DNA of 64,000 bases, from the IMG/VR virus record IMGVR_UViG_3300042731_004976, positions 1-64,000 of that record. One strand, 5' to 3'. Origin of the DNA: a virus. The notes under the pieces are model-generated. The model was not told the origin of the DNA. It made no database searches and saw only the letters and a program-made list of their open reading frames with translations. This document shows positions 11,787 through 57,755 of this stretch, piece by piece. Each line of letters starts with the position of its first letter. The first letter of the stretch is position 1. Both the position numbers and the translations under genes were made by a program.

Positions 11787-14783
11787 TTGGCGGGTAAGAT
11801 CCAAATGAGCTTCGAGGCGTTCAAGAACGCACCGAAGCTCTCTAGCGACAAGCCGGAACCATTCGCGTTCAAATCGAAGCCTCCCTTCAAACCTCTTTGG
11901 GAAGTGCAGAAGGCGGACGGTACGGTCCTTTGGACGTTCGCCTCTCAAGCGGAGGCTACGGCCAAGGCGCAGACGATCATGAACTCGTCCGGAGAATACG
12001 TCATGGTCGTTGCTCAACAGGCTACAACCAAGAAACAGACCCCTGTTGAACAAGAGGCGGCTGTTGGAGAGGTGCTCGCAAACGCACTCGAATGGAAAGA
12101 CATCGAGGCCAAAGCGAGCGAGGACTCCGAGCTGGACGCTGACGACAACTTCTCAGAGCTAGCAAAGGGTCTCCTGTCCGACGAGGAGGACTTCGGCGAA
12201 GACACGCCCGAACTCGTTGAGTCGCAGGACCCGGAGGCGGAGCAGATCGCGTTAGCTGCCTTGCAGAAAGAAGAGGAGGAAGCCGAGAGCGACGTCGATG
12301 AAGCGATTCAGACATTGAACAGCCTGACCGCCGACGATGACGATGAGGAAGAAGAATCGAGTGACGTCGATCCCTTCTCTAAAGACGACGCAGATGCGTA
12401 TCCCGAACCAGATCCTCCCGTTCTCTACATGGAGGAGTCCGTAACTTACTGGAGCGTCAAGACTTACTACGAAGGCGCCCTAACGATTTGCTCTGTCTAC
12501 TTTGCGGAGGGTTTGGAGGGAGAGCCGCTTTTCGATCTCGTGAAGCCGTTCGGCTTCGTTGCGCGAGAGCATCCGGTAGCCGAGGATCCTCCGTTCACCG
12601 TGCAGCTAGATGGTATCTATCCGAAAGCCGGGCAGTGCCTCGCTCAAATCTTGGATGCAGAGGAAGGAGGGCTCCTCGTACATCTCGATTCCCTGCTGGT
12701 AGGCGACTTCGAGCTTTGGAAGCAGGATCACGTTCTGGATCTCGATGCTGGCACCGCGTCGGTCTCGCTTACGTTCAACTTGCCCGATAGCTGGTCCTGC
12801 GAAACCGCGGAGGCGGCGGCCAAGTCCCTGTCCTGGATGCCCGAGGGTACGCAGGTATCGATCGAGTCAGAACCTCTCAACAACTCCGAGTCACATCGTC
12901 TCGTCGTTCTGTTGCCTGACTTGGAGACAGGTGTTGCTCCAACGATCACGAGTTCGTTGAAAGGGTTTGCTGCACAACTCAAGAAAGGGAAAGTCAAGTA
13001 CCTCGCCGACGAGTGGAAGAAAAAGGCATTCTCCTCTGTCTCCTTTCCCGGATCGATTCTTTCGGCCGTCATGTCGGGAACGCCGTTGAAGGACGCGCTA
13101 CCTGTACAGGTCTCACTCAAACAACTGAACGATGAGCTGGTTTCGTTGGGATTGCCTCAGCTCCAAGAGGACGGGCAGCTGATCATTGGTGGGGAGACCT
13201 ACACGGTCGTTCCGACTGGAGCGAACCATCAGGTCTTTGCGAAGCCTGCCGGGGAGCCCCTCGCGTACATAGCCGGAGTCGACTACTCCCACAGTCCTGG
13301 CACGGGGACTACGACACAGATCCACGTTCAGGTGTCGGCACCAGGGCTGCTCCCGGCTTTCATGCAGCGCATCCACGCTGACTGGGGTACCGAGGTAATA
13401 GCCGCGGACGCTGAAACGGGAACCAACCATATCAACATAGAGGTAGTCGGGCTCTGGCACGAGCACGAAATCAAGGCGAAGCTGAATCGGTGGGTTTCGG
13501 AGATCCTAGACGAGGTTGATTCCGTAGGGTCCTCGGCTTCGGCCTTAGTACACGATCAAGTCCTCAAAGACATGATCGAGGCTCGGAAGCAAGCACTTCA
13601 GACCATGCTCCTTCCCAAGGGCGTGATGACCAAGTCGTTACTTCTCTCTGAGAAACCAGCCGAGGTCGTTACCAAGTCCAAGAAGAAGTCGGGAGATACC
13701 GTGGCGGAGATCGATATCGCTCCGGCTACGCCCGCGGAGAGTATCGATTTCGAGCTAGAGCTAGCCAAAAAGCCCTCGCCCAAAGAGATCGAGTCTGGGT
13801 TGAAGAAAGCCCTAGGCGAATACGTGTCCGAGGACACGGAGTACTTCAACAAGAAGCTATACGACGCTCTCGGGTTGGCTCCTGGAGGCGAGAACCTGAA
13901 GCACGAGCCTCTTGCAACGGTACGCCTCCATCTCCTACCGACCCCAACGGAGTCCTCCGACTTGGTGTTCTCTTTGGGCTCGGGTCCGAACTCCGACGAG
14001 GACGACGAGCACCCTAGGACGATCGTAGTCGGTGACTTGCATGGGTGTATCGATGAGCTGTACGAGCTGTTGAACGACGTCGGATTCAACCCTGGAATGG
14101 ATCGTCTCATCAGCGTGGGCGACGTCCTAGATCGCGGCCCGAACCCTATCGGCGTTCTGCGCCTCTTCCAAGGACTGGGAGCAGAAGTCGTTCGAGGCAA
14201 CCACGAGGATAAGTACCTCCGCTACTGGAAGCACCTAAAGAAACCAAAGAAGTACCCCAAACCCCACATGACCGCTCGCCACATGGCGATGTTCAAGCAA
14301 CTCACGTTCGAGGACTTCGAGTTCATGGAAACGTGGCCTACGATGATCGACCTCGGCAAGTTCGATCACGTGCACGGGCGCTTCGTTGTTGTTCACGCGG
14401 GGATGGAGCCCGCGTTGCCCGTCAAGGACCAGAACCCGAAACACCTCATGAATACGCGCTGGGTTGACTCCGCAGGTCACTTCCTTGCATGCGAACCAGG
14501 CACGCTCGAAAAGCCCGAAGGAGGAATTCGCTGGACTGCGAAATGGCTTCGAAAGGAGAACGTGATCTACGGACACTCCGTGCGTAGTCTCGAAGATGTC
14601 GTCATCGAGCAAGTCCAGATGAAATCCAAGAGCAACGCCGATGTTTGTGGAACTACGTACGGTCTCGACACCGGCTGCGTCTACGGCGGTAGGCTGTCTG
14701 CTCTCATCCTTCCGGACATGAAAGTGGTCCAAGTACAAGCGCAGAAGCAGTACGTTGCTCCGATCCTGGACCTCGCGGGTTGA
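11787..14783 (+). CDS. large multidomain protein with C-terminal calcineurin-like metallophosphoesterase (PPP/ApaH/PrpE-like)
   Basis: GDLHG, GDVLDRG, RGNHE, VHAG, YGH, LDTGCVYGGRLSAL motifs; long acidic N-terminal part. Confidence 0.85.
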   Translation: MAGKIQMSFEAFKNAPKLSSDKPEPFAFKSKPPFKPLWEVQKADGTVLWTFASQAEATAKAQTIMNSSGEYVMVVAQQATTKKQTPVEQEAAVGEVLANALEWKDIEAKASEDSELDADDNFSELAKGLLSDEEDFGEDTPELVESQDPEAEQIALAALQKEEEEAESDVDEAIQTLNSLTADDDDEEEESSDVDPFSKDDADAYPEPDPPVLYMEESVTYWSVKTYYEGALTICSVYFAEGLEGEPLFDLVKPFGFVAREHPVAEDPPFTVQLDGIYPKAGQCLAQILDAEEGGLLVHLDSLLVGDFELWKQDHVLDLDAGTASVSLTFNLPDSWSCETAEAAAKSLSWMPEGTQVSIESEPLNNSESHRLVVLLPDLETGVAPTITSSLKGFAAQLKKGKVKYLADEWKKKAFSSVSFPGSILSAVMSGTPLKDALPVQVSLKQLNDELVSLGLPQLQEDGQLIIGGETYTVVPTGANHQVFAKPAGEPLAYIAGVDYSHSPGTGTTTQIHVQVSAPGLLPAFMQRIHADWGTEVIAADAETGTNHINIEVVGLWHEHEIKAKLNRWVSEILDEVDSVGSSASALVHDQVLKDMIEARKQALQTMLLPKGVMTKSLLLSEKPAEVVTKSKKKSGDTVAEIDIAPATPAESIDFELELAKKPSPKEIESGLKKALGEYVSEDTEYFNKKLYDALGLAPGGENLKHEPLATVRLHLLPTPTESSDLVFSLGSGPNSDEDDEHPRTIVVGDLHGCIDELYELLNDVGFNPGMDRLISVGDVLDRGPNPIGVLRLFQGLGAEVVRGNHEDKYLRYWKHLKKPKKYPKPHMTARHMAMFKQLTFEDFEFMETWPTMIDLGKFDHVHGRFVVVHAGMEPALPVKDQNPKHLMNTRWVDSAGHFLACEPGTLEKPEGGIRWTAKWLRKENVIYGHSVRSLEDVVIEQVQMKSKSNADVCGTTYGLDTGCVYGGRLSALILPDMKVVQVQAQKQYVAPILDLAG

Positions 14784-14808
14784 CTATCGCAACCCCATAC
14801 GATAAAGT
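14780..14808 (+). promoter_or_regulatory. sigma70-like promoter overlapping upstream stop codon
   Basis: TTGACT-17-TAAAGT. Confidence 0.7.
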
Positions 14809-14817
14809 TCGATCTCT

Positions 14818-15114
14818 ATGATTCGTCTCCCTCTCCTTCCTGGAGACCTCGTTGTTCTCGAAGCAGCTCTCTGCGCATACGTCGAGAAGGCGCCGGACAG
14901 GCTGCGTGGTCAAGGCGAGCGCTTGCTAGAGCACGTACGCTCACAGAAGGAAACGGAATCTCCTGTCCTAGGCAACGTGGACTATTCGGCATTGGAAGCT
15001 CGTATGCTGGCGCGTGTCCTGGCTGGGGCTTTGGCCTCTCACCAAGAGGCTATGCAGAGCGAAAGCCCGACCGGACGCCTTCCGAAGGAAGCAGGCGCAC
15101 GTGGACGAGAATAA
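14818..15114 (+). CDS. small protein carrying PolA motif-A-like and TGRL peptides
   Basis: DYSALEARMLA and SPTGRL. Confidence 0.6.
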   Translation: MIRLPLLPGDLVVLEAALCAYVEKAPDRLRGQGERLLEHVRSQKETESPVLGNVDYSALEARMLARVLAGALASHQEAMQSESPTGRLPKEAGARGRE

Positions 15115-15370
15115 GCTCCGGATCCTTCGGAAGGTCGGGTACCGCTTCCCGCCCACCTGTGGCCGCTGCAAGCACGGGATCTTTCCTCAAAACCAGTGGG
15201 GGACCTGCGGAATCCACAAGTACGAGCACCAGAAGCATACCGGCCCGGCCAGGGCTCTGAGCATCCACATGCTTGGGAGCTGTCCTCAGTTCGAGTCCCA
15301 GGGCGTATCCCTGGGGGCTTACCAGGAGTTCCTCCAGGAGGGGATCAAAAAAGATCCGATCTCCTCTTGA
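15101..15370 (+). CDS. Cys/His-rich small protein
   Basis: CGRCKH..C..H..C; start uncertain. Confidence 0.5.
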   Translation: MDENKLRILRKVGYRFPPTCGRCKHGIFPQNQWGTCGIHKYEHQKHTGPARALSIHMLGSCPQFESQGVSLGAYQEFLQEGIKKDPISS

Positions 15371-15395
15371 CCATGCCGTTCTTATGCGATAAGGT
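15367..15395 (+). promoter_or_regulatory. sigma70-like promoter (leaderless)
   Basis: TTGACC-17-TAAGGT; ATG 6 nt later. Confidence 0.7.
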
Positions 15396-15401
15396 CTAGG
15401 T

Positions 15402-15629: not shown

Positions 15630-15735
15630 AGAGGATTGTGCGTCGAATACGTGTCGACGACACGCTCAACGAACGGTCCGCACACCGAAAAGTGTCTACG
15701 GTCTGGATGGATCTCTTACGACAAGGCGTTTTCCG

Positions 15736-17699: not shown

Positions 17700-20465
17700 A
17701 TGATCGAGTACGAGGTGGTCGACTCGCCCGCGGTCTTACCCAAGATCGCGGGCGAGATCGCTGAAGCTGAAGCAGTCGGTCTCGACATCGAGACGACGGC
17801 GTACAAGCCCCAGCACGGACACATCCGTCTGGTGCAGATCAACACCCTCAAGGGTGTGTACGTCATCGACCTCTTCAAGACGAAAACTCTCGATCCCGTG
17901 ACGGAGGCTTTGGCGGGCCCCGCCGTGAAAATCGTTCAGGCGGGAGTTTTCGAACAACTGTGGTTCCTCGCAAAGTACGACTGCATCTTGTGGCCGTTGT
18001 TCGACACGCACCGTGCGAGCGCGATGATCCACAACGGGAAGAACCTCGGGCACAACCTCTACGATATCTACCTTAGGGAATTGGGAGTTTCCCCGGAAGC
18101 GCCAGACCTTGGAGGCTCTGACTGGAGCGGGCACCTCACCGACGCCCAGTACAAGTACGCTGCGGAGGACGTTGTCCACCTACCAGCACTACGGCAGTCC
18201 CTCAAGCCGAAGCTGGCTAAGGCAGGACTGAATCGTATCGCGCTGCTGGAGTTCGGAGCCATCCTTGGAGAAGCCGAGATGAAGCGCAACGGCTTCCCTC
18301 TCAACAAGGACCGATGGCTCGCGCTCGCGCGAGACAACAAGGAGAAGGCGGAGAAGATCCGCTCCCAGTTGGATCTGATGCTCCCGCATCCTAGCGGACA
18401 GGTTTCGCTCCCTGGGATGTCTTCGGGTTTCAACCTGAACTCGACCCAGCAGCTACAGAAGAGCTTCAAGCGCTTGGGTATCGACTTGACGAGCACAGCG
18501 GAGAACGTGCTCGGTATGATCGCATCGAAGCACCCCTCGATTCCGAAGTTGATGGAGTACAAGAAGGTCTCCAAGAGGGTCAGCTCTTTCGGTCCGGACT
18601 ACCTCAAGCACTTAGATGAGGCGACCGGCCGCATTCATTGTGACTACTGGCCGCTTACGGGAGCAGGTCGCTACTCGTGCAGCGATCCCAACCTTCAACA
18701 GATCCCTCGTACGAAGGACTTTCGCGGTTGCTTTGCCCCTGGTGAGGGAAAGACCTTCGTAGTCTGCGACTACGGTCAGATCGAGCTTCGCATCGCTGCG
18801 GAGATTACCGGAGACAAAACGCTTCGAGGCATCTACGTGAAAGGGGAGGACGCGCATCAGCGCACGGCGTCCCTGGTGTCGAACGTTCCGTTCGATCAAG
18901 TCAGTAAGGAGCAACGGCAAGCAGCGAAGCCCGTGAACTTCGGACTCATCTACGGACTGGGTTGGGAGAAGTTGATCATCTACTCCCAGGTATCGTACGG
19001 CGTTACCCTGACGGAGGGGCAAGCCAAGAAGTTCATCAAACGCTACTTCGAAGCCTATCCGGCGGTGCGTGCGTGGCATGATCGTGCCCTTAGAGATGGG
19101 CAGCGGACGCACATGGCCCGTACGTTGTGGGGGCGTCTTCGTTACCTCGATCCCGAGAAAAGCCGCAATGAGTTCTTCAATTGCGTGGATGACGAAACGG
19201 AAGCGCTCACCCGCCGAGGGTGGGTTTCCGGATTCGATCTCAACCTCGACGACGAACTGTTGACCAAAAACCCAGACACAGGAGAGCTGGAGTGGCAGCG
19301 CATGACGGCTCTGAAACGCTTCCCCGATCACGAGGGAGAGGTTTGGGAGTTCCGCAATAGGAGCTTCAGTGCTGTAACTACGCCCGATCACCGCTGGTTG
19401 GTGTACAACAAGATCAGTAAGCGAGACGAAGAACGAGTATCGAAGGACCTCTCGCAGTGGGGTGACCATAGGATTCATCGCACGGGACACTTCCGTGGCG
19501 CTTCTCGAAAAGAAGTTACAGACGACTTCGTGGAACTGGTTGGTTGGTTTCTCACAGACGGATCTGGTTTCTTGTCAGGAACGAACAAGACGAGAGACAC
19601 TGCGAATCTGTACCAAAGTGCTCGCGCGAACCCGCACAAGGTCGCTGAGATAGATCGGCTCTTGGAGAATAGTCCGGAGTGGTTGACTGGCCGGTACGAG
19701 TACGGGGAGTCCAACAACTTCCAGGTCACGTGGCGCTTGGAAGAGAAAATCTCCGAAGAACTACGTACGCTGTTTCCCTCCCGCCAGTTGACCGTGGACT
19801 TTCTGGGGCGTCTGACACGTCCGCAACTAGATCTTCTTCTCCACACCATGATGGCTGGAGACGGCCACGTTGAGGACAGCGGTAAGCGGACATTCTGTTG
19901 CGGAGAGGATCGTATAGATCAGAAGGAGGCTTTCCAGATCTTGTGCACCCTTTGCGGGTATGCTTCTTCGAGTAGGCTTCGTGACTTCCGGAAGTACCCT
20001 CCGGGCGTTTCTGCGAAGATGCAGAACTCACCCAAGCGGGGGAAAGCTTGGTACGTGACGATACTTCGGAGAGACAAGGTTAAGATCCAAAGGGACCACG
20101 TAACCGTTTCGCACCGGAAAGTTCCTGTTTGGTGTCCCATCGTTCCGAACACGTTCTTTGTCGCTCGGCGAGAGGGTCAGGTATACATCACCGGGAACAC
20201 CCCCGTGCAGGGAACGGGAGCAGACGGGCTCAAAAGATCCTTGCCTCTTGTGTACCATCGACTGCGCCAATTCGGTGAACAGGCGCGCATGGTTCACATG
20301 GTCCACGACGAAATCGTTGTCGAGGTAGACGATCATCCAGATCTGGTTACGGCGGTGAAGCACGAGCTGGAACAGGGCATGATCGAGGGAATTCAGCCTA
20401 TGTTGCCGCATGTTCCTGTGGAGGCCGAAGCGGCCTCGGGACCTAGTTGGGCAGAGGCGAAGTAG
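17700..20465 (+). CDS. polA: DNA polymerase family A (3'-5' exo + pol) with intein
   Basis: LDIET exo I, YAAED exo III, PNLQQIP, DYGQIELR, RQAAKPVNFGLIYG, VHDE. Confidence 0.95.
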   Translation: MIEYEVVDSPAVLPKIAGEIAEAEAVGLDIETTAYKPQHGHIRLVQINTLKGVYVIDLFKTKTLDPVTEALAGPAVKIVQAGVFEQLWFLAKYDCILWPLFDTHRASAMIHNGKNLGHNLYDIYLRELGVSPEAPDLGGSDWSGHLTDAQYKYAAEDVVHLPALRQSLKPKLAKAGLNRIALLEFGAILGEAEMKRNGFPLNKDRWLALARDNKEKAEKIRSQLDLMLPHPSGQVSLPGMSSGFNLNSTQQLQKSFKRLGIDLTSTAENVLGMIASKHPSIPKLMEYKKVSKRVSSFGPDYLKHLDEATGRIHCDYWPLTGAGRYSCSDPNLQQIPRTKDFRGCFAPGEGKTFVVCDYGQIELRIAAEITGDKTLRGIYVKGEDAHQRTASLVSNVPFDQVSKEQRQAAKPVNFGLIYGLGWEKLIIYSQVSYGVTLTEGQAKKFIKRYFEAYPAVRAWHDRALRDGQRTHMARTLWGRLRYLDPEKSRNEFFNCVDDETEALTRRGWVSGFDLNLDDELLTKNPDTGELEWQRMTALKRFPDHEGEVWEFRNRSFSAVTTPDHRWLVYNKISKRDEERVSKDLSQWGDHRIHRTGHFRGASRKEVTDDFVELVGWFLTDGSGFLSGTNKTRDTANLYQSARANPHKVAEIDRLLENSPEWLTGRYEYGESNNFQVTWRLEEKISEELRTLFPSRQLTVDFLGRLTRPQLDLLLHTMMAGDGHVEDSGKRTFCCGEDRIDQKEAFQILCTLCGYASSSRLRDFRKYPPGVSAKMQNSPKRGKAWYVTILRRDKVKIQRDHVTVSHRKVPVWCPIVPNTFFVARREGQVYITGNTPVQGTGADGLKRSLPLVYHRLRQFGEQARMVHMVHDEIVVEVDDHPDLVTAVKHELEQGMIEGIQPMLPHVPVEAEAASGPSWAEAK
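19182..20198 (+). mobile_element. intein (339 aa) with LAGLIDADG-like endonuclease
   Basis: EFFN|CVDDETEALT...TPDHRW...YITGN|TPVQG; LVGWFLTDG and MMAGDG motifs. Confidence 0.9.
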
Positions 20466-20499: not shown

Positions 20500-21327
20500 G
20501 TGGCTGTCACCAAGAAGAAGAGGAAACAGCGCAAGCCGGCCTTTCGGACTAGCAACCCCAACAGAGATCCGCGTTTCGCACGTCTCAAGGCCCTCGCCTG
20601 CTTCGACCAAATCAAGCCAATGTTGCTCGCTGGACACTCCTGCCCGAAGGTAGCCGAGTGGATTCAGGAGGAGCAGAAGGAGCTGGAAGACGCCTCGCGC
20701 GAAGGTATTGTCACGCTGCTCCGACGCTATCGGGAGTCCTTCTCGGACGCTGAGCTGATCCAAGAGCGGATGCCCCAAGTCTTCGAAGAAGCGAAGACTC
20801 GGGTACACGAGTCCCTCGATGAGTTGGCGGAGCTGGAGGATCTATACCGTCTCCAGAAAGAGCGCGTCATGATCGATGTGGCTCTGGAAAGAAAGTTCAG
20901 CAAGCTGCTTCCATCCAACACGCAAGAGATTCGAGCCGCGCGCGAGATCCTCAGCACCATCGCCGAACTGAAGATGGACCTAGGACTTCATGATCGCAAG
21001 CTCGGTACAGTAGACGTGGATGCAAAGATAGAAGCTACGCTCATCGCCAAGCACGGGGACTCTCGTTTGGCGAAGACGCTGGCAAATCCTCAGCAACGGC
21101 AGCGTCTCTTGGGTATAGCGAAGCTCATGGCCAAGCGTGCCGGTCGAGAGGACGAACCTGTCGAGGTGATCGACGTTCCTGGGGAAGCTACGGACATCCA
21201 AGCTTCTCCAGAAGAATCTCCCGTCGTCGTAGACGTGTCCGCTTCGAACGAGACGGAGGAAGAAGAGACTCCTCCCTCCGACGTTTCCTCTTCAGGCTAC
21301 CCCGGTGCGGAGGGCGTGTCCCCATGA
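20500..21327 (+). CDS. putative terminase small subunit
   Basis: Helical protein directly upstream of and overlapping TerL. Confidence 0.55.
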   Translation: MAVTKKKRKQRKPAFRTSNPNRDPRFARLKALACFDQIKPMLLAGHSCPKVAEWIQEEQKELEDASREGIVTLLRRYRESFSDAELIQERMPQVFEEAKTRVHESLDELAELEDLYRLQKERVMIDVALERKFSKLLPSNTQEIRAAREILSTIAELKMDLGLHDRKLGTVDVDAKIEATLIAKHGDSRLAKTLANPQQRQRLLGIAKLMAKRAGREDEPVEVIDVPGEATDIQASPEESPVVVDVSASNETEEEETPPSDVSSSGYPGAEGVSP

Positions 21328-23414
21328 TCATTGAAAAGGGTGGGAGGGCTCGGAGTTTTCGAACTCTTGAGGAAGAGGACGCAGCTCTGAAGAAGGAACT
21401 GGAATCGCTTACTCCAGACGAGCGCGATGCCCTCATGCTCATGCTCTCAGAGCTAGAAGAAGAAAAGCAAGACGGCGAGCAGACCCTGATAGATCTCGTT
21501 TCTGAAGCTGAGTACAAGCACGCGATCGTTGACATCGAGACCTTCATCAAGGATCCCTACTACCTGGGGAACACGTGCGAAGCGCTGTACGATCAGCACG
21601 TCATCGACCTAAAAGAACTGTTTAGCGGCGGCTACCAAGAAGCGATCTGGACTGGCGCAATCGGGTACGGAAAGACCTTCGTCGCGTCCGTAGCTGTTGC
21701 ACGGGTCATCTATGAGATCTCGTGCTTGAAGGATCCACACCGATCCTTCGGCGTCGCTCCGGGGTCCAACATTTCCCTCGTCTGCCTTTCCGTAAACGAG
21801 GGCCTCGCGATGAAGGTGGCCTTCGAGAATATCGCGACCAAGCTCAAGGCGAGCCCCTACTTCCAAGAGAACTTTCCGTTCAAGGAGACGAAGAAGGAGT
21901 TCCGTTTTCCCAACAGCGTCTGGTTGGCTGCGCGAGCTACAACCGACACGTCTGTTCTCGGCTTGAACGTGATCAGCGGTCTCCTCGACGAGACCAACTT
22001 CATGGACAAGGGACGAGCGGACGCTCGCTTCGGGTCTGTGGATCACGCAGAAACCATCTATGCCGGCATGCGACGTCGTATGAAGTCTCGTTTCGAGCGA
22101 CGGGGGAAGCTGCCCGGCATGTTGTTTCTCGTGTCGTCGAAGACAACCACGGATGACTTTACCTCTCGACGTATTCGAGAGTCTAAAGACGATCCGACTG
22201 TCTTTGTTAGGGACTACTCCCTATGGGACGTCAAGCCAGAGGAGTACTACAGCGCGGATAAGTTCCTCGTCATCTGCGGAAATGAGCAGGTTCATTCACG
22301 CATCATCGACAAGGAAGAAGAAGAGGTCTTCCGAAAACAGATGGACGATCTTCCGGACGGCATCACCGTAGTAGATGTTCCGGAGGACTTCCGTCTCGAC
22401 TTCGAAAGGGACATTGAGGGAGCGATCCGCGACATCGCGGGGATGAGTACGGTTGCGATCAGCCCCTTCATTCAACGAAGAGAGCGCCTCGTTCCTTGGG
22501 ACAAGCACCCGGGCCATCCGTTCTCCGTGGAGGTCTGGGATCCGTCAAAGCCAGGCAACTTCGTCTGGGAGCGCATGGTCATGGAGGTGGAGGAGACGGA
22601 CTTCAGTGGGTACTCCCACAAGAAGCTTCGTCCTATAGTCAATCCTACGGCTGCGCGTCACATTCACATTGACCCGGCCTACCGAAAGGACCGCGTGGGA
22701 TTCTGCATGGGCCACGTAGCGGACTGGACTGACGTAACCCGTCGCACTGAAGACGGTGCGGTGTACCAGGAGCGCGCGCCCATCTTCCACATCGACGTCA
22801 TCTTGCAGATCGTTCCTCCCGTAGGAGATGAGATCGTCCTAGGGGACATTCGACGTCTCGTCTATCAGCTAGCGGATCACGGTTACATCATCACTGGGGT
22901 GTCAATGGACACCTGGCAGTCGGTTGATGCCCTTCAGCAGCTCAAGGCCAAGGGGTTCAACTCAGAACACCTATCTGTCGATACTCAGATGGATCCGTAT
23001 AACTGCGTGAAGGATGCCTTCTACGAAGGCCGAGTTCGGATCTATGACTACGCGCCGGTCTTCAAGGAGCTTCGGGCTCTGGAGAAGGACGAGAAGAGGA
23101 ACAAGGTCGATCACCCTCCCAAGGGCAGCAAGGACGTCAGCGATGCCCTTGCTGGGTGCCTATTCAAGCTGAAGATGCGCAATGCTCGTCAACCTCTTCC
23201 GATAATGCGAGGTCTGTCGTACTCTCCAGATGCTTGGATGGACGAGCAACTTCAGCACTCCATGGCCCTACATCAAGGTTCCAACCGCGGTGAAGACGGC
23301 CGCTACTACCCGGGTCTGGCGACTCGGGGAGGAGTGCCGCAGGGGATGCTTCCTCCATTCCTTGGGGGAGGTAGTGGTTCGAACGACGATGACGGGGGCT
23401 GGTCTCCGTTGTGA
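21324..23414 (+). CDS. terL: terminase large subunit
   Basis: Walker A GAIGYGKT, Walker B LLDE, nuclease HIDPA and KDVSDALA. Confidence 0.9.
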   Translation: MIIEKGGRARSFRTLEEEDAALKKELESLTPDERDALMLMLSELEEEKQDGEQTLIDLVSEAEYKHAIVDIETFIKDPYYLGNTCEALYDQHVIDLKELFSGGYQEAIWTGAIGYGKTFVASVAVARVIYEISCLKDPHRSFGVAPGSNISLVCLSVNEGLAMKVAFENIATKLKASPYFQENFPFKETKKEFRFPNSVWLAARATTDTSVLGLNVISGLLDETNFMDKGRADARFGSVDHAETIYAGMRRRMKSRFERRGKLPGMLFLVSSKTTTDDFTSRRIRESKDDPTVFVRDYSLWDVKPEEYYSADKFLVICGNEQVHSRIIDKEEEEVFRKQMDDLPDGITVVDVPEDFRLDFERDIEGAIRDIAGMSTVAISPFIQRRERLVPWDKHPGHPFSVEVWDPSKPGNFVWERMVMEVEETDFSGYSHKKLRPIVNPTAARHIHIDPAYRKDRVGFCMGHVADWTDVTRRTEDGAVYQERAPIFHIDVILQIVPPVGDEIVLGDIRRLVYQLADHGYIITGVSMDTWQSVDALQQLKAKGFNSEHLSVDTQMDPYNCVKDAFYEGRVRIYDYAPVFKELRALEKDEKRNKVDHPPKGSKDVSDALAGCLFKLKMRNARQPLPIMRGLSYSPDAWMDEQLQHSMALHQGSNRGEDGRYYPGLATRGGVPQGMLPPFLGGGSGSNDDDGGWSPL

Positions 23415-24154: not shown

Positions 24155-25918
24155 GTGGGGTTCTTCACTGGAGTAGCGGATCGCATTCGCCAAGCGTGGA
24201 TTCAGGACAAGGAGTCCGTTCCGCTTCAGTTGGCGAAGGGCGCAGCCATGGCCGGGCTTCCGCAGTCTGGCTACGATCTCCTCCAAGCGTACGGATACGA
24301 TGTCCTAGGCGACTATCTTCGCCTCGAACAAGATCTCCTTTCTCGCTACGTTGACTACGAGGAGATGGATGACTACCCGGAAATCGCTGCCGCGGTAGAC
24401 ATCTTCGCAGACGACTCCACGCAGCCCGACACTCAGATCAATCGTACGGTCTGGGTGACGTCTCCAGACAAGAACATCCAAAACGCGCTCAACGAACTGT
24501 TTCAGAAGCGGTTGCGGATCGACGAAGAGATTTGGGAGATCGCCCGTACACTGGTCAAGTACGGCAACGACTACGAAGAAGTGCTTGTCACTCCTCAGGG
24601 TGTGATGGGTCTCAACTTCCTCCCTCCTCCTACGGTACGTCGTATCGAAGGTCCGAGAGGAGAGCTGTTTGGGTTCATTCAGGACTTTCAAGGCCGTTTT
24701 GGGTACTCACCCGAAGAGTTCAAGAACGTGCTCGCTCGTCGGACCGCTGCTCTACAGGGTAGAGGCCAAGATAGCTACGGCATGCAAATGGACCCAACGC
24801 TCAATGCGTTGGAAGACTGGGAGGTGGTGCACTTCCGTCTACGTGGGAAGCATCGCCGGAGCATCTATGGGTTCTCTGCGTTGGAGGCGGCTAGATGGAT
24901 CTTCAAGCGCCTCATCCTCCTCGAAGATTCGGCGATCATCTATCGTCTTCAGCGCGCTCCTGAACGCTTCGCCTTTTACGTAGATGTTGGGGACCTGCCC
25001 CCTGCCGAAGCGTTGGCGTATGTCAACAGAGTTCGACAGCAGTACAAAAAGCGCAAGTACGTCAACCCGAGTACGGGCAAGCTCGACCTGAAGTTCGACC
25101 CTCTCTCTCAGGATGAGGACTTCTTCCTGCCTTCTCGTCAAGGGCAAGACGGTACCCGAGTAGACGTCCTGGCCGGTCCGCAATGGCAGCACATGGAAGA
25201 CATCGAGTACTTCCAGAACAAGCTGTTCAGTGCGATGAAGATCCCGAAGGCGTACCTTGCTCAGGATGAGAATACTGCTCGTGCGGTCCTCTCGACCGAG
25301 GACGTTCGCTTCGCGCGTTCCGTGCTGCGTATCCAGCGAGAGCTGCAAAACGGCTTGCGCAAGGTAGCCCGCATCCACTTGGCTGCTATCGGACTCGATC
25401 CTCACAAGGCCGATTACGATATCCACATGACTGTCCCCAGCTCCATTTTCGAGTTGGCTCAGTTGGAGGTCCGAAACGCACGTGCGGACCTGGCAGGGCG
25501 TATGAAGGAGTTCATGCCCTTCTACTGGATCTACAAGCGCATCTTCTCGCTCAGCGACGATGAGATCCAGGTCCTTACCAAGCAGAGGGAAGAGGACGTT
25601 CTCAACGAGGCCCTGTGGGGAGCTAAGGCAGAGGCAGCGGCTCAGAAACTGGCCCAGGGCGGAGAACAACAAGCAATGCCCGTGGCTTCGGGAAAGAGAG
25701 AACTCGGAGCCTCCAGAAAGATCATCGTTCCCGGACAGGTTTCGAGGGGCGGGGCCCGCGGTATTTCCGAGCGGGAGCTGATGGCGGGGTACTCCAAAGA
25801 GGTGGAGAAACGGCTCGACGACAAGCTAGATCGCCTTCTGAAGGGGGATCGGCAGTTGGAGGGGGCGCTTCGAGAGCTTGGGGACTTCGTTCAGGTGCTG
25901 GCAAGATCTCATCGGTAA
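24155..25918 (+). CDS. portal protein (T4 gp20-like)
   Basis: IYRLQRAPERFAFYVDVGDLP, EDFFLP, EDIEYFQNKLFSAMKIP. Confidence 0.93.
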   Translation: MGFFTGVADRIRQAWIQDKESVPLQLAKGAAMAGLPQSGYDLLQAYGYDVLGDYLRLEQDLLSRYVDYEEMDDYPEIAAAVDIFADDSTQPDTQINRTVWVTSPDKNIQNALNELFQKRLRIDEEIWEIARTLVKYGNDYEEVLVTPQGVMGLNFLPPPTVRRIEGPRGELFGFIQDFQGRFGYSPEEFKNVLARRTAALQGRGQDSYGMQMDPTLNALEDWEVVHFRLRGKHRRSIYGFSALEAARWIFKRLILLEDSAIIYRLQRAPERFAFYVDVGDLPPAEALAYVNRVRQQYKKRKYVNPSTGKLDLKFDPLSQDEDFFLPSRQGQDGTRVDVLAGPQWQHMEDIEYFQNKLFSAMKIPKAYLAQDENTARAVLSTEDVRFARSVLRIQRELQNGLRKVARIHLAAIGLDPHKADYDIHMTVPSSIFELAQLEVRNARADLAGRMKEFMPFYWIYKRIFSLSDDEIQVLTKQREEDVLNEALWGAKAEAAAQKLAQGGEQQAMPVASGKRELGASRKIIVPGQVSRGGARGISERELMAGYSKEVEKRLDDKLDRLLKGDRQLEGALRELGDFVQVLARSHR

Positions 25919-28230: not shown

Positions 28231-28434
28231 ATGAAGCTTGGCGGCTTCGACGAACTGCATATTCGTCGGGCCGCCGTGAAACCTTCGGGTTCGTGAAGAG
28301 AGAGATCAATCCTCTCGCAAGGAAGATGAGGAAGCACAGGAAGGACTTCAAGAGCGCGTTCGGTGCCAACCTCACCTTCACTCCCTTCAAGGGTAACTTT
28401 CGCTGGCGATTCCACTGATTCGAAATCAACCCCG

Positions 28435-30108
28435 ATGACCAAGAAAAAGATCACAGAAGCCTACGTTCCGAAGCCGGGACAGAAGCTATTGGTCGACTCC
28501 TTGCCGATCTCGCTACAACTCGTCGAAGACGGGATGTCAGGCGGCAAGCTCATGGTTCGAGGGGAGTTTGCAAGATCAGACATCGCCACCGAGAACAAGC
28601 GGGTCTATCCCCGATCTCTGTGGGAGCGTGAAATCCGAAGGCTCAACAACTCGATGCAGGAGAGGAAGCTCTTCGGCGAGTTGGACCATCCGAACGATGG
28701 GACGACGAAGCTCACCCGAGCGTCCCACATCATCACTGCGATGGAAGTTGGTCAGGACGGTACGGTCATGGGTGAAGCGGAGGTCTTGGACACCGCTCGC
28801 GGCAAAGACCTCAAGGCCATGCTCTCCGCAGGTTGCAAGGTGGGCGTCAGTTCGCGTGGCTACGGGTCCACTCGAACGAACGACAAGGGGTCGGAGGTGG
28901 TCCAGGAGGACTACAACCTCGTGACCTTCGACTTCGTTGCGGAGCCGGCAGACAGCACCGCTTACCCGGAAGTGTACAGCGAAAACGCGCCGACCCCGGC
29001 TCCGGAACAGCGGGTCAGCGAGAACAGGGAGAACGACATGGGAACCCAGGCTCAGCGAGAAGCCGATCAGGAGAAGGCCAAGGCATTTGCCGCTGCTGTT
29101 CAAGCAGAAGCCGAGGGGAGCAGCCCCGAGGATCTGGCGAAGCAGTTCGAAGCCGACATCCTGAACAACCTCGGGAAGCTCTCCGCAGAGGCACGTGAAC
29201 GCATCCGTGCTGAAATGCTGGCAGATCCGGCTGTGGGCCGCGCCAAGGAAGCGGTCGAAGCCATCAAGACCGTTCTTCGTCCGTTCGTCCTTCCGGAGGA
29301 CGTCGAGACCGTGGTGAAGCAGAAGGACGAGGAGATCGCTCGCTTGCACTCAGCACTCAAGGAGCGCGATCTCAAGATCCACGACTACGAGCAGCAGACC
29401 GAGCAGCTCGCTACCCTCGCTCGTCAGGCCGGGTTCAAGTACTTCACAGAGCGTGCTCTCAGCGGGAATCCCGACAAGAAGACCATCATCGAGTCTCTCG
29501 GTGACATGACGCAGTTCGAAAACGCCGAGGCCCTCAAGGCTGCGGTGGGCGAAATCGTCGAGTCCTTCAAGCAGCGTCGTGCTGCGGAAAAGAAAGCTCG
29601 TGCTCTCGCGGAGCAGAAGGAGAACGAGCGTCGGAAGGCTCAGGCTGCTGCCGATGCACGTGCCAAGGCTGCGGAAGAAGCCGTTCGCAGGGAGCGCGAC
29701 CAGCTCCAGGAGGCCCTCGAAAAGTCTCTGGAGTCGCACAAGCAGTTGGCCGTGCAGCTCTTTGCGGAGCGTCGTTTGGCAACGCACCCCAATCGCGGGG
29801 AGCTGAACGTACTCATGGAGCGAGTACAGCCGAAGACGAAGGAAGAGGTCGAGGCGATCATCGAAGAGCACGATCGCCTCAACGAGGAGCGTCGAGATCC
29901 AGATCAACTCGAAGCGGTTCGATCGCGAGTGCGTGAGGCCACGAAGGGCGGATCGGGAAGTACACCTTTGAACGAGGAGAGACCTTCCCCTCGATCGAGA
30001 GGTGTGACAGACTACAACGGTCTTGGTATCGATCTCGGCACTCTCAAGCAACTCAGCGGCATCGGACGAAATGGCGCTCCCGCACTTCCGCGGGGAGCCA
30101 AGAACTAG
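28435..30108 (+). CDS. prohead protease (gp21-like) fused to coiled-coil scaffold
   Basis: NKRVYP, GELDHP, GVSSRGYGS, DFVAEPA; helical C-half. Confidence 0.9.
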   Translation: MTKKKITEAYVPKPGQKLLVDSLPISLQLVEDGMSGGKLMVRGEFARSDIATENKRVYPRSLWEREIRRLNNSMQERKLFGELDHPNDGTTKLTRASHIITAMEVGQDGTVMGEAEVLDTARGKDLKAMLSAGCKVGVSSRGYGSTRTNDKGSEVVQEDYNLVTFDFVAEPADSTAYPEVYSENAPTPAPEQRVSENRENDMGTQAQREADQEKAKAFAAAVQAEAEGSSPEDLAKQFEADILNNLGKLSAEARERIRAEMLADPAVGRAKEAVEAIKTVLRPFVLPEDVETVVKQKDEEIARLHSALKERDLKIHDYEQQTEQLATLARQAGFKYFTERALSGNPDKKTIIESLGDMTQFENAEALKAAVGEIVESFKQRRAAEKKARALAEQKENERRKAQAAADARAKAAEEAVRRERDQLQEALEKSLESHKQLAVQLFAERRLATHPNRGELNVLMERVQPKTKEEVEAIIEEHDRLNEERRDPDQLEAVRSRVREATKGGSGSTPLNEERPSPRSRGVTDYNGLGIDLGTLKQLSGIGRNGAPALPRGAKN

Positions 30109-41000: not shown

Positions 41001-41151
41001 TACCGATGCGTACTTCGTCGTCGTGGACGAGACCAACAACGATGCGGCTTCCATCGAAGCAGGTCAGGTCATCATCGACATCGGAGTCGCCCCGAACCGC
41101 CCGGCGGAGTTCGTTCGCTTCCGCTTCCAGCAGAAGACGATCTCAGGCTAG
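38086..41151 (+). CDS. tail sheath protein with large insertion domains
   Basis: SPGVFIEE, KGP, FFANGG, YWPW, KAP, INP, VWGVRT, VFENN, PAEFV. Confidence 0.95.
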   Translation: MAEFLSPGVFIEEVPSTVQTIAAVSTSNLGIIGFTTKGPVDEATLVTSPDQFFRTFGELSPDTFTGLSVLAFFANGGRRAFVVRVVPSDAVTADADLQSKTYSQQIETGDGSTVNFTKTDLNTTLKVNGGLSPIIAYNGLANAGILLQWRSAGAAIAAERVKDITDGTTDLDLVDSQAEYGFTIDPTQLPALAEEDWEQLAVVPGTVTLSFDPDGGGARTLVLANPTSGSVSSTPGDGATTDSETVVVFDYATGRGSILFGASDINDVPDASVVAASLTLAYTPTTTSRQARDDGSGNIIQITTSTIDAGGTNTIDYNDGSYDFDTTVGATPHDGAPILATYFIEAFDLNPVSPGEWANNIKLQVQGNANYFDASTQTYTKFDVNVTELNSQSGLFEVVESYEALDFSDSSAVDYFVDVINELSDLIEVTSPAGDEAPGTLNGRSVTQEIGAGGANFTPATFGAVDLLGDDLRDQGFAIGPRSVVLTATDKGLAATGTITTVAEASLIDGETFTLDDGVNPAITFEFDVGGGGVVAGNVAVVIAAMDTADVVRDAIITAVNGEAAAGNILIRAADGGAATVDLTHARTGVVGNQAITDTVADAGFVVVGMAGGTADTTLTVNDDGTGALTGDIDPTYATTVTVSGTDIPPNEINYALGWANFQFNTTNGLKGGTLVEAAFYTDPEESVREDQFGDTDKQFTDTAAVPVDHYAAGSDGTFTSSTYSRTQFSDPTLQSGDRGLYALNKVDEIMQVIIPDFAGDVTVTGDLLDYAAARAALPSGGDRFIILAVPVGSDAQEAVDWFRFDLGRFSKFAALYWPWIRVADPLADGRPLLMPPLGHVAGVYARTDTTRNVGKAPGGTVDGALNFLIGLETEPTQGDRNFVYPNKINPLISSPQTGLAVWGVRTIAIESEWRYIQARRLFMFLEKSVFNATGWIVFENNGPGLWSRIKGQLDGFLSNLFNEGLFFGASPTDAYFVVVDETNNDAASIEAGQVIIDIGVAPNRPAEFVRFRFQQKTISG

Positions 41152-48028: not shown

Positions 48029-48559
48029 ATGAGCGAAGTGAAGACATGGCGGTACAGTCTCCCAGGTCAGAAGGAGCCGTACGATAGCTGGACGATCGCG
48101 TTAATCGATTCGACGGGTTGCGTGGCGATCCTCTCTGACTACGGAGACTGGTGCTACCGTTGGTCCACGCCAAACACAGGCCATGAGGACTTCCGCGAGT
48201 TCTTCATCGGCATCGATGCGAGCTACGCCGCGCGCAAGCTAGCCAACGAGAGTGATCGAAACCAGTTCGACGGAGAGGCCACGAGGAAGCGTATTCGTCA
48301 GGACATCCTGAGAGACCGTCGCGCGCGTGCCTGCTCTGCGGATTGGGCTCGCCAAGAGTGGGACCTCGTGGATGTGATCGAGGATGACCACGAGTGCTCT
48401 TTCAGTGCATTTCTGGCAGAGACCTCCATCGAAGATGCTTTCGAGTACGCGATCACCAGGATGGGGCGCGGCTTGACACACTGGGTTCACGTGTCACTAC
48501 CTCGGCTACAACAACTGATTCGAGAGGAGCTGGCGAGCGAAGCCGGCGAAACGTTATGA
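48029..48559 (+). CDS. phage hypothetical protein
   Basis: SDYGDW.Y.W, YAARKL motifs. Confidence 0.6.
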   Translation: MSEVKTWRYSLPGQKEPYDSWTIALIDSTGCVAILSDYGDWCYRWSTPNTGHEDFREFFIGIDASYAARKLANESDRNQFDGEATRKRIRQDILRDRRARACSADWARQEWDLVDVIEDDHECSFSAFLAETSIEDAFEYAITRMGRGLTHWVHVSLPRLQQLIREELASEAGETL

Positions 48560-49962
48560 GCTTCAAGTACCAAGCGATCAAGCACGGAGACAGCCACTAC
48601 GTATTGCCGAAGATCGGCGACATGCGAGTGGAGGCCCACGCCTTTCTTTCCGATGCTCTCTATGAGTCGTCAGATGAGGGCCTGTGGAACCAGCTTGCGA
48701 GCGGAGCTTCCTACGAGGGTGTCATCGGAGCCTACGTCATGCCCGACACGCACCTGGGCTTCGGAGTTCCGGTAGGTAGCGTCATCGTCACCGAGAACAC
48801 CATCATCCAGGCAGGCTCCGGCTACGACATCTCGTGCGGCGTCGTCTACATGAAGGTTCCGGGGCTCAAAGCCCGAGGCGTGCGTGGCTGGTACGATCGC
48901 GAGCGCTGGATTCGAGAAGTCGAGAAGCGGGTAGCTACGGGTGTGGGTTCCAACCGCCCCAAGCTGATGCCCAAGTTCTCGGTGAAGAAGAGCGACGAGA
49001 TCTTCCACCAGGGGGCCAAGGCTCTCGGAGTCTCGGCTGATGTGTGTGAACGCCAGTTCATCGAGGTCCCCAGCGATACAGATCCTTCGAGGATCGAGAA
49101 GGCCTACGCAAAGTCCCTCGATCAGCTCGGAAGCGTGGGAGGGGGAAATCACTTCGTCGAGATGCAAGTCGATCGCGACACGGGCGAGGTCTTCGTCATG
49201 GTTCACTGCGGCTCCCGCGGCTATGGCTGGCAGGTCGCCAACCACTTCTTCTACGAGGGTGCGCTTGCTCGCGGTCTTCCCACGAATCGCCGAGAGGACT
49301 CGTGGCTCTACGCAGACGAGCCCCTCGGGAAGGACTACTGGGCCCTTCACAACACGGCTGCCAACTACGCCGTGGCCAACCGACACATCATCGTTCGTGG
49401 CGTCCAGGAGGCCCTCCAGGAGGTTTTCGGGGTTGAGGGTGAGGTCTACTACGAGATCAGCCACAACCTCGTGCAGGAGGAGACTCTGGTCCTCCCCGAC
49501 GGGACTCAGAAGAAAGGCTTCGTGCACAGGAAGGGCGCGACACGTGCGTTCCCGGCCGGACACCCGGACTTGAAGGGTACGAAGTGGGAGTCCACGGGGC
49601 ACCCCTGTCTGATTCCCGGCTCGATGTACGAGGGGGCAGCGATCCTCTTTCCGAAGCAAGGCGCCTACAAGTCTGGGTGCTCCGTCAACCACGGTTCTGG
49701 TCGTCTCATGGCTCGGGGAAAAGCACGGAAGACCCTCGGGCACAAGCAGGCACGCATCGACGAGGAGATGCGTACGGTCAAGCGTACATTCAACGGTGTT
49801 CAGATCGAAGGGATTGTCGGAAACACCAAGAAGACCCCCATCGACGAGTGTGGGCACGTCTACAAGGATCTGGACGAGGTGCTTGCTGTCCTGGAGGACA
49901 ACGGCATCGCAGAGGTGCGCCACCGGCTCTATCCGGTGGCCAACATCAAGGGAACGGACTGA
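48556..49962 (+). CDS. rtcB: RtcB RNA ligase
   Basis: MPDTH.G.G.PVG, DISCG, GGGNHF, HCGSRG, HN, HRKGAT, PGSM, HGSGR, YKD. Confidence 0.95.
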   Translation: MSFKYQAIKHGDSHYVLPKIGDMRVEAHAFLSDALYESSDEGLWNQLASGASYEGVIGAYVMPDTHLGFGVPVGSVIVTENTIIQAGSGYDISCGVVYMKVPGLKARGVRGWYDRERWIREVEKRVATGVGSNRPKLMPKFSVKKSDEIFHQGAKALGVSADVCERQFIEVPSDTDPSRIEKAYAKSLDQLGSVGGGNHFVEMQVDRDTGEVFVMVHCGSRGYGWQVANHFFYEGALARGLPTNRREDSWLYADEPLGKDYWALHNTAANYAVANRHIIVRGVQEALQEVFGVEGEVYYEISHNLVQEETLVLPDGTQKKGFVHRKGATRAFPAGHPDLKGTKWESTGHPCLIPGSMYEGAAILFPKQGAYKSGCSVNHGSGRLMARGKARKTLGHKQARIDEEMRTVKRTFNGVQIEGIVGNTKKTPIDECGHVYKDLDEVLAVLEDNGIAEVRHRLYPVANIKGTD

Positions 49963-54100: not shown

Positions 54101-54105
54101 TCGCC

Positions 54106-55243: not shown

Positions 55244-55248
55244 CCCCA

Positions 55249-55277
55249 TTGGCTATCCGATAAGTATGTGATAGCTT
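55249..55277 (+). promoter_or_regulatory. sigma70-like promoter
   Basis: TTGGCT-17-TAGCTT. Confidence 0.5.
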
Positions 55278-55287
55278 CCGGCAACAC

Positions 55288-56336: not shown

Positions 56337-56362
56337 ACCCGATGCGTCCATATGGACGCATC
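56337..56362. repeat. palindromic element, copy 2
   Basis: 22-bp perfect palindrome GATGCGTCCATATGGACGCATC at 56341-56362. Confidence 0.85.
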
Positions 56363-56380
56363 CCACGGACGGAGGAATAG

Positions 56381-57055
56381 GTGAGCCGGTTCTTTCTCGA
56401 CACTGAATTCATCGAAGACGGACAAACCATCGAGTTGATCTCCATCGGAGTCGTTTCGGACGATGGCCATGAGCTGTATCTCTGCAACAGCGATTGCGAT
56501 CTCTCGCGTTCCGGTGATTGGGTACGCGCTCATGTGTTGCCTCACCTGCCGGAGAAGAAGTGGGAGCTACGGAAAGATCCGTGGTTTTCGATGATGCGTC
56601 GTCACAAGGACGCTGGGCATTGCTACTACCTGTCATCACGCCAGTGTAGTCGGGCTCACCTAGTTCGGCCTGCCTACGGAGAAGCGGAGATAGTTCCAAA
56701 GCCTCTGCTGCCCTGGGCGACGAAGCTCGACTTGAGATCGCACTTGTGCGCCTTCATCCAGGAACACACCCCGAAGGGGAACCGTCCCGAGTTCTGGATG
56801 TACCACGGCGCCTACGACTGGGTTGTCGTCTGTCAGCTCTTCGGACGCATGATCGATCTCCCTAGCGGTTGGCCGCACCACTTCATGGACCTGAAGCAAT
56901 TCGCAGTCATGTCCGGAAACGAGCGCCTGATCGAGCAACCCATTCCGAAGCACCACGCCTTGCAGGATGCGCACTGGGTCCGGGACGCCTACCTCGATTG
57001 CTTGAAGCGTGATGCCCAGAAGATGCTCGACTGGGTGAGAATGCAGGAAGCGTGA
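56381..57055 (+). CDS. DEDDh 3'-5' exonuclease (Rv2179c/RNase AS-like)
   Basis: FLDTEF, LISIG, YDWV, HHALQDA. Confidence 0.85.
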   Translation: MSRFFLDTEFIEDGQTIELISIGVVSDDGHELYLCNSDCDLSRSGDWVRAHVLPHLPEKKWELRKDPWFSMMRRHKDAGHCYYLSSRQCSRAHLVRPAYGEAEIVPKPLLPWATKLDLRSHLCAFIQEHTPKGNRPEFWMYHGAYDWVVVCQLFGRMIDLPSGWPHHFMDLKQFAVMSGNERLIEQPIPKHHALQDAHWVRDAYLDCLKRDAQKMLDWVRMQEA

Positions 57056-57456
57056 TCGTCTACATTCGGCAATTTCGAATGGAGCAGTCAGCGATGTCTG
57101 CTTACAGTAGCTACATGGGTCCGGGCCCGGTCACGATAGAGATAGAGCTGGTGGCAGAGGGTTCGGAGGGCTACGAAGACCTGAAACACCACGGTCCCTT
57201 CATCTTGGAGCCCTTGAACAAGCATACCCAGAGACGCGAGGCGCCTCGTCCCGAGACACTCGCTCCGTCGAACGCTACGATGGCGAATCCGGAGATGCTC
57301 GCTGTCGATACTCCCTCGCCTACCGAGGCGCAGGCCGAAGCCGATCAAGAAAGGATGCATCGTATGACGACGCCATACGAAGAAGACTATCAATGGTCAG
57401 GATGTCCTGACTGCAACACCAAACCCTGCTGCTGTGCACTGCCGGATCTATTCTGA
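57052..57456 (+). CDS. hypothetical protein
   Basis: GTGA overlap. Confidence 0.55.
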   Translation: MIVYIRQFRMEQSAMSAYSSYMGPGPVTIEIELVAEGSEGYEDLKHHGPFILEPLNKHTQRREAPRPETLAPSNATMANPEMLAVDTPSPTEAQAEADQERMHRMTTPYEEDYQWSGCPDCNTKPCCCALPDLF

Positions 57457-57755
57457 TGGGCCTATTCGACTACATCGACATGTTGATGACTGAGGAACAG
57501 GCGCAGGAGTGCGCCAAGTCGGGTGTGATCTACACGCCGTACGTCCCTCTCCAGGTCTCCAAGGTCATGATCAAAACCACCGTCACCCTCCACCTCGAAG
57601 AGTGTGACTGTCCTGCGTGTTGTCCCTATCACGTAGCAGCACGCCGGCATCCGTACGGACCCGGGCAGGTACTCTCAGTCTCCCTAGCCGATGGCGAATC
57701 TCCTCCAAAGGGCTGGAAACGGGTACCAAAAGATCCGAACAGTTCTCTTCCTTGA
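57456..57755 (+). CDS. small protein carrying an MCP-like peptide
   Basis: TGATG coupling; SGVIYTPYVPLQVS. Confidence 0.6.
   Translation: MGLFDYIDMLMTEEQAQECAKSGVIYTPYVPLQVSKVMIKTTVTLHLEECDCPACCPYHVAARRHPYGPGQVLSVSLADGESPPKGWKRVPKDPNSSLP

Follow-up and report, generated by a model that had tools for sequence, protein, structure and literature searches.

The window analysed herein is a 64,000-nucleotide stretch, the first 64 kb of the viral record IMGVR_UViG_3300042731_004976 (167,992 bp, 58% GC, estimated completeness 80%), which to judge from its genes is a T4-type myovirus. Toward the end of the window lies an accessory gene for a protein of 99 amino acids (aa) (P0001; 57456-57755, plus strand), whose product joins an N-terminal module resembling a short segment from the major capsid protein (MCP) to a cysteine-rich C-terminal module. 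We consider it probable that the N-terminal module is a capsid-derived mimic carried by a small modular family of phage proteins, and that it does not belong to a multi-target set of such mimics. In profile comparisons the similarity to the capsid protein was shown to be statistically secure, reciprocal, and centred on residues that are invariant in both families, and the capsid-strand module, as far as sequence comparison can tell, is a genuine and undescribed feature.

The capsid-like peptide SGVIYTPYVPLQVS (57519-57560, plus strand) is identical at 8 of its 14 positions to SGFVWAPYIPLQVT (31534-31575), its counterpart in the gp23-type MCP of the same phage (30181-31689, plus strand; Pfam Gp23, E = 1.9e-71). 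In the alignment of the lineage MCPs, P458, Y459, P461, L462 and T465 of the matching segment are invariant and Q463 nearly so, and the invariant core PYxPLQ is common to the module family and the MCP family. When Pfam profiles were run over the whole genome in six frames, Gp23 (PF07068) gave one extra site besides the MCP, at 57513-57581 (E = 0.019), and it was also the top Pfam match of the homologue P0003 (E = 0.0028). The whole-protein Gp23 scores of P0001 and P0003 were 12.8 and 17.5 bits, respectively, which lie below the gathering cut-off of 24.4 and concern profile positions 313-339 only. Lineage-specific hidden Markov models (HMMs) were built from related viral contigs (14 MCPs, 81 portal proteins, and 41 family A DNA polymerases, PolA) and searched with all filters off, and their scores were calibrated empirically with 150 shuffled proteomes, which confirmed the HMMER E-values. 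The lineage MCP HMM scored the 99-aa protein at 11.9 bits (E = 7e-4), and the maximum reached by the shuffled proteomes was 7.7. In the reciprocal search, an HMM of the module with no MCP in it ranked the phage's own MCP first among the non-self proteins (E = 9.5e-6), and when five related phage records were searched in six frames, each gave the capsid gene as the sole match (E = 1.7e-5 to 4.2e-5). Alignment of the module with the MCP family by hhalign gave a probability of 94% (P = 1e-7) over 22 columns with a score of 47.9; 200 shuffles of the columns never exceeded 24, and the portal and PolA controls reached 12-15. The claim of the earlier note that an MCP motif lies in this open reading frame (ORF) is thus upheld, since the lineage HMM, the reciprocal HMM and hhalign all exceeded the shuffled controls.

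The externally built profile phrog_13936 (PHROGs v4, 43 positions) matched only two sites in the genome, the motif of the small protein and that of the MCP. Six module proteins had a PHROG match at all, and for five of them this profile ranked best, with weak matches (E = 0.007-0.05) that always fell on profile positions 24-38 of 43; P0009 had phrog_35070 as its best PHROG and P0013 was without a PHROG match. A family member on a 151-kb viral contig (L165, ORF 2962-3285) matched capsid genes of Flavobacterium, Microcystis and Rhizobium phages when compared by tblastn with 50,697 phage records, over up to 79 query residues. In hhalign this member and the MCP gave a colinear match of about 28 columns that reaches upstream to the G-x-K-G motif of the MCP (P = 8.6e-5). 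At the DNA level, the two motif copies resemble each other only as far as the protein identity demands, and their serine codons belong to different families; given this lack of extra DNA identity, the copy appears to be old rather than a recent duplication. In the same kind of search, a 441-aa hypothetical protein of Escherichia phage EP75 (Kuttervirus; L172 1429-1700, ORF181) was found to carry EEMAKEGIIFAPYTP at residues ~25-39, which resembles the module of the L165 member; this match is weak (tblastn E = 6).

The family of module proteins was gathered by a word search combined with an exhaustive profile search. The module occupies residues 1-40 of P0001 (57456-57575, plus strand) and reads LFDYI, an invariant E13, A.ECAKSG, and then VIYTPYVPLQVS; the cysteine-rich module takes up residues 41-99 (57576-57755, plus strand) with the pattern H..CDC..C.P ... 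GP.Q ... GW.RVP. Carriers of the N-terminal module are P0001, P0002, P0003, P0006, P0009, P0013 and the L165 ORF. P0003, encoded by metagenome contig L004 and also by contigs L005-L007, is a full-length homologue with 63% aa identity, and it lies in synteny between the same three neighbour genes as P0001, namely those for a dCTP deaminase, an Rv2179c-like exonuclease and an ADP-ribosylglycohydrolase. The first 45 codons of the two genes show 9 synonymous and 11 non-synonymous differences. From this comparison the 99-aa gene is taken to be real and kept in synteny; its ATG overlaps the upstream stop codon (TGATG), which suggests translational coupling. P0002, P0006, P0009, P0013 and the L165 protein have only the first ~40 residues in common, and the module is fused to at least five unrelated C-termini, those of the other members being a CxxC...CxxC zinc ribbon, short charged tails, or a helical domain. 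Across the family, F4, D5, I7, E13, K21 and P-Y-x-P-L-Q are invariant. The capsid-like peptide is identical at 13-14 of 14 positions in P0002 and P0003 and the remainder of those proteins is divergent, so that in the capsid case the motif is the most conserved stretch among homologues, the property that the earlier note had proposed to check. The cysteine-rich module also occurs without the N-terminal one in P0008, P0010 and P0012, either free-standing or heading a larger protein. A tblastn search of cultured phages with the 45-aa module gave no match at E<=1.

The AlphaFold2 model of the 99-aa protein was of moderate quality (predicted local distance difference test, pLDDT, 68.5 overall). In it the N-terminal module forms two short helices and then an extended segment, with a pLDDT of 54-66, and is poorly ordered alone; the cysteine-rich module was modelled best (pLDDT 75-85). 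Several further resemblances were considered and discarded. The cysteine-rich module was ruled out as MCP-like (hhalign P = 0.4). The same held for LDPxxF..RK, a zinc-ribbon pattern of P0002, P0007 and P0011, as a second MCP match (P = 0.45); this pattern is absent from P0004. A Pfam TGT match on P0001 (E = 0.0044) was dropped, as it recurs in no relative.

The earlier note had presented the capsid-like peptide as one of several: three ORFs were each said to embed a motif of a core phage protein (portal, PolA, MCP), a terminase-nuclease-like and a virion-repeat-like peptide were added as weaker cases, and the whole was read as a decoy system against several targets at once. All the quoted peptides are indeed present in frame where they had been placed. 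Of the three ORFs, only the one with the capsid peptide holds up; the portal and PolA resemblances are at chance level. Matches no better than shuffled controls had been named as an outcome that would refute the proposal, and this is what was found for four of the five motifs, with only the capsid-like fragments exceeding chance. The backgrounds of the portal and PolA HMMs were flat, and the phenomenon is specific for the capsid and not multi-target. The decoy system with several targets is an artefact that arose from motifs spotted post hoc; the peptides likened to portal, PolA, terminase and virion repeat resemble these by chance and were singled out after the fact. As a negative result this shows that look-alikes of portal, polymerase and terminase motifs arise by chance at this proteome size, and that profile-based, shuffle-calibrated tests are needed before a system is inferred from short motif look-alikes.

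The individual results are as follows. The pairwise test compared all predicted proteins with the MCP, the portal protein and PolA by the Smith-Waterman algorithm, with 60 residue-shuffled proteomes as the null, and the mean top-1 scores of the shuffled proteomes were 54.8, 56 and 57, respectively. The portal-like peptide EDTEYFNKKLYDALGL (13830-13877), within ORF 11787-14783, is identical at 8 of 16 positions to its counterpart in the phage's own portal protein, EDIEYFQNKLFSAMKI (25196-25243). The best Smith-Waterman score of the portal protein against this 998-aa protein was 50, at a site other than the claimed segment, which itself scored 46 (ungapped BLOSUM62); both lie below the shuffled mean. 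Portal_T4 (PF07230) had no six-frame match at E<=10 beyond the genuine gene and none on this ORF in hmmscan at E<=1, and the 81-sequence portal HMM did not report it at E<=5, its best non-self score being 4.3 bits. The peptide is the best match of the proteome to that single 16-residue portal window (z = 6.5), as compared with z = 4.6-7.1 in pseudo-real shuffles, and with all windows allowed one of six shuffles equalled it; the window ranks 130 of 572 in information content, and the window-corrected p is ~0.17. The PolA motif-A-like peptide DYSALEARMLA (14980-15012) lies within ORF 14818-15114, and the true motif A, CDYGQIELRIAAE, is at 18765-18803. PolA scored 26-32 against this 98-aa ORF, with a Smith-Waterman score of 32 as compared with the shuffled average of 57, and in a position-specific scoring matrix (PSSM) the peptide reached 9.7-9.9 bits as compared with shuffled all-window maxima of ~21. 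DNA_pol_A (PF00476) found the genuine gene only (six frames, E<=10), hmmscan gave no match on the ORF, and the 41-sequence PolA HMM left it unreported at E<=5, with a best non-self score of 2.9 bits. The terminase-nuclease-like YIAGVDYS (13266-13289) and the virion-repeat motif in the ORF at 58742 were detected neither by Pfam nor by the lineage-specific HMMs and were no better than shuffles, the best local match of the latter being an unremarkable 46. No terminase profile matched anywhere in the record: the Pfam profiles Terminase_6N and Terminase_6C (PF17289 / PF03237) gave no match at E<=10 across the 168 kb. In the interval between PolA and portal, a 696-aa ORF (21324-23414) was without a Pfam or PHROG match.

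Elsewhere in the record, four further small ORFs drew the lineage MCP HMM: 143112-143852 (25.3 bits), 105577-105903 (8.1 bits), 119450-120028 (7.2 bits) and 94664-95239 (3.1 bits). Scores as high as the first three are expected empirically <0.01 times per proteome, and the last does not rise above background; 143112-143852 and 94664-95239 have a twin-arginine-like signal at the start. The MCP segments matched by the four are the spine-helix (250-314), QPM...FxLDY (100-119) and the C-terminal part (454-486). It is conceivable, but in our estimate unlikely, that the 57456 protein and the mini-ORFs at 94664, 105577, 119450 and 143112 form an arsenal of capsid mimics whose copied segments act as baits. 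Were this so, the baits would neutralise capsid-triggered host defences or sabotage the capsid assembly of competing phages, and they would represent a kind of weapon, for counter-defence or for use between phages, that has yet to be described for phages. Directly after ORF 119450-120028 lies ORF 120068-120373, which encodes a protein of ~100 aa with a hydrophobic C-terminus. On L165 (2941-3580) a homologue of this ORF, with 36% identity, is found immediately downstream of the gene with the N-terminal module. Capsid-like mini-genes may be conservedly paired with a gene of this type.

The copied segment corresponds to residues ~449-470 of the phage's own MCP and ~445-465 of T4 gp23, where the counterpart is DAGIYYAPYVAL (about residues 445-456). 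In T4 gp23 the A/P linker follows just after the matched segment, at residues 486-502 (PMC9546572), and by analogy with the HK97 topology the segment probably forms one strand in the hairpin of the P domain. An AlphaFold2 model of the MCP, built with 14 close relatives, had a pLDDT of 47, too poor for a three-dimensional placement of the motif. A predicted complex of MCP and N-terminal module scored 0.00 with controls not run, and this value speaks neither for nor against binding. The explanation that we favour, that of a capsid-derived mimic, could work as follows. The module would descend from a 3' piece of a capsid gene captured long ago and would have been retained for its mimicry of the capsid segment. 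It would compete for whatever recognises this segment in unassembled MCP, which may be a sensor of the host, a protease or chaperone, or another capsid subunit, and the variable C-terminal domain would supply a second activity. If mimicry is true, phages would possess a simple and portable means to interfere with anything that reads the capsid protein, and the module would offer an experimental handle on the part of the gp23-type capsid that is "seen" inside infected cells.

Several points weigh against this explanation. We know of no capsid sensor that targets this segment, which by the HK97 topology should be a strand in the core of the fold and as such a strange epitope for any sensor that reads the capsid protein once folded. 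The gene is missing from the five related phage records and is thus dispensable. As it was the module that led to the family members, its apparent conservation is in part due to ascertainment, and because the likeness is limited to ~20-28 residues, convergence on a strand-Pro-kink motif is possible. The pairwise score of MCP and the 99-aa protein was 53, about equal to the shuffled top-1 mean, and single-window PSSM tests, which are crude, of low power and confined to this genome, did not separate the MCP motif from shuffles. These last two results would suit the notion that all the matches, that to the capsid included, are due to chance, as would the raw Smith-Waterman counts: the MCP collects seven matches at >=53 with one expected, but several compositionally biased proteins draw more, so that the count is not diagnostic alone. 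Against chance stand the HMM, the reciprocal HMM, the profile-profile comparison and the replication in five genomes, all with P <= 1e-5 and empirically calibrated, and we regard it as very improbable. A relic or convergence without mimic function deserves more weight, even if we judge it rather less probable than not: an old captured fragment would have been kept only for the fold of the small protein itself, or the strand motif would have arisen independently, and the role of these proteins would lie in their zinc-binding C-terminal domains. The shortness of the match, the DNA identity that does not exceed the aa requirement, the different serine codon families, the C-terminal modules found alone and the relatives without the gene all fit such an origin. 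It accounts less readily for a module that is common to unrelated proteins and whose invariant positions coincide exactly with those of the MCP, or for the L165 member, which extends the match to ~28 columns and, in tblastn with capsid genes, to as many as 79 query residues.

Two narrower versions of the mimicry remain to be weighed. According to one, which we hold to be doubtful as a specific mechanism, the module is an immune decoy that shows the capsid peptide early and titrates or pre-empts a defence protein triggered by newly made capsid protein. Lit and some cyclic-oligonucleotide-based anti-phage signalling system (CBASS) defences are reported to be triggered by capsids. The carrier domains differ from member to member and the capsid-like core stays invariant, and the gene is located in an accessory cluster, after nucleotide-metabolism genes and before that for the ADP-ribosylglycohydrolase, both of which would suit a decoy. 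Capsid proteins also trigger CapRel (PMC13728456), and a decoy role has been put forward in print for essential-gene fragments in Bodo saltans virus (PMC5871332). The expression of a trigger peptide could equally activate a sensor, which counts against a decoy together with the want of a known sensor for this segment and with the position of the Lit-triggering Gol region, which lies elsewhere in T4 gp23, at about residues 93-122, than the ~445-465 of the copied segment. According to the other version, which we find similarly doubtful, the module is a ligand in capsid assembly that pairs by strand mimicry with the capsid protein or with factors that help it to fold or assemble; it would anchor the C-terminal domain on proheads, modulate assembly, or act as a poison when a co-infecting relative assembles its capsids. 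An N-terminal module that is poorly ordered alone, as expected if it folds on a partner, and that has an invariant Glu13 after a hydrophobic-x pair (M-T-E, residues 11-13) is consistent with such a role. The M-T-E tripeptide resembles the prohead-protease sites of T4-type phages (L/I-x-E), but it is not kept in P0009 or P0013, and the N-terminus is unlike the phage's own shared leader, MKI.EG.ELD. What was copied is probably one of the strands of the capsid fold and adjoins the A/P linker (PMC9546572), which favours a ligand, yet in a folded capsid subunit the site of this strand is already filled.

In cultured phages the MCP identity is at most 35%, with none close, and IMG/VR holds 34 related viral contigs with MCP identities of 31-90%. 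In the viral contigs, close relatives of the 998-aa and 99-aa proteins were not found. The core genes include the T4 gp20-type portal protein (24155-25918, plus strand; Portal_T4 E = 1.2e-74), PolA (17700-20465, plus strand; DNA_pol_A E = 1.4e-61, phrog_17), the prohead protease (28363-30108) and a tail sheath of 1021 aa (38086-41151), and the accessory region holds an RtcB-like RNA ligase (48394-49962), the ADP-ribosylglycohydrolase (57790-58731, E = 1e-59) and an HNH endonuclease (59148-59861). PolA contains an insertion of 339 residues (residues 495-833; 19182-20198) between Pfam DNA_pol_A positions 285 and 288, and the PolA of close relatives, at 585 aa, is without it. The first residue of the insertion is Cys, its end reads ...ITGN and is followed by Thr, and LAGLIDADG-like stretches (LVGWFLTDGSG) lie inside; by these marks it looks like an intein with a homing endonuclease, and Pfam gave no intein match in it. 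MCP residues 133-271 and tail sheath residues 550-707 have in common a Gly/Thr/Ala-rich stretch of ~140 residues (Smith-Waterman 80, HMM 7.1 bits), which may be a shared insertion domain or compositional bias only.

The two ORFs to which the portal and PolA motifs had been assigned were characterised as well. In the 998-aa protein (11787-14783, plus strand), the last 250 residues are, by profile, a NinI-like Ser/Thr metallophosphatase: Metallophos (PF00149) matched aa 744-893 with E = 7.5e-14 (53 bits, cut-off 21.5), phrog_246 matched with E = 7.9e-30, and the GDxHG, GDxxDRG and GNHE motifs are visible in the translation. The orphan N-terminal ~740 residues, which include a long acidic stretch, gave no domain match and no homologue anywhere searched, and residues 540-745 were likewise without a homologue, also in the five related phage records. 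The orphan 98-aa ORF (14818-15114, plus strand) has a weak coding signal, and its coding status is uncertain; its GC content at third codon positions is below that of another frame. For neither ORF was a homologue found in 5.8 billion proteins or in the five related records. The 98-aa ORF stands behind a promoter-like site, TTGAC-N15-18-CGATAA(A/G)GT, of which there are two copies (14780-14805 and 15367-15392; 0.05 expected by chance). Each copy sits ~10-13 bases upstream of an ATG (14818 and 15402), a spacing that suggests near-leaderless early transcripts.

Comparison with known systems sets the small protein apart from each of them. With the T4 gp23-type MCP (PF07068; PDB 6UZC, 7VS5, 5VF3) the module has in common the segment G-x-x-(Y/W)-x-P-Y-(V/I)-P-L-Q-V-T of the lineage MCP, for which T4 gp23 itself reads GIYYAPYVAL at residues ~445-456. 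The match covers ~20-28 of 376 profile positions (7%), and by its sequence the 99-aa protein is not a capsid protein: it could not build a shell, since it is without the spine helix, the E-loop and the A domain. The capsid-targeting sequences of T4 (IPI-III, Alt) are, like the module, short portable N-terminal tags on unrelated cargo, and the module has a possible hydrophobic-x-Glu protease site at residues 11-13, in which Glu13 is invariant and the P3 position is not (P0009, P0013). We take the T4 tag to be without sequence similarity to the module, and the leader family that this phage's own proteins share is different again. The Gol peptide, in the interplay of Gol, EF-Tu and Lit, is a precedent for a short gp23 stretch that acts alone as the recognised element of a host defence. 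We place the Gol region at about T4 gp23 residues 93-122, and since this is far from ~445-465 the matched segment is not the known Lit trigger; Gol is moreover part of the capsid gene itself, whereas the copied segment here lies in a separate gene. A 2026 review of phage counter-defence makes no mention of a capsid decoy. The nearest parallel comes from Bodo saltans virus, whose ankyrin-repeat genes contain fragments of essential genes, for which the authors proposed an anti-defence decoy function (Deeg et al. 2018, PMC5871332). Both there and here, variable carrier domains bear a piece of a viral protein that is essential, and in both the decoy role is a proposal. Bodo saltans virus is a giant virus of a eukaryote with ankyrin carriers, catalytic-domain fragments and many targets, whereas in the present case a phage appears to use tiny zinc-binding or helical carriers for a single target, the capsid.

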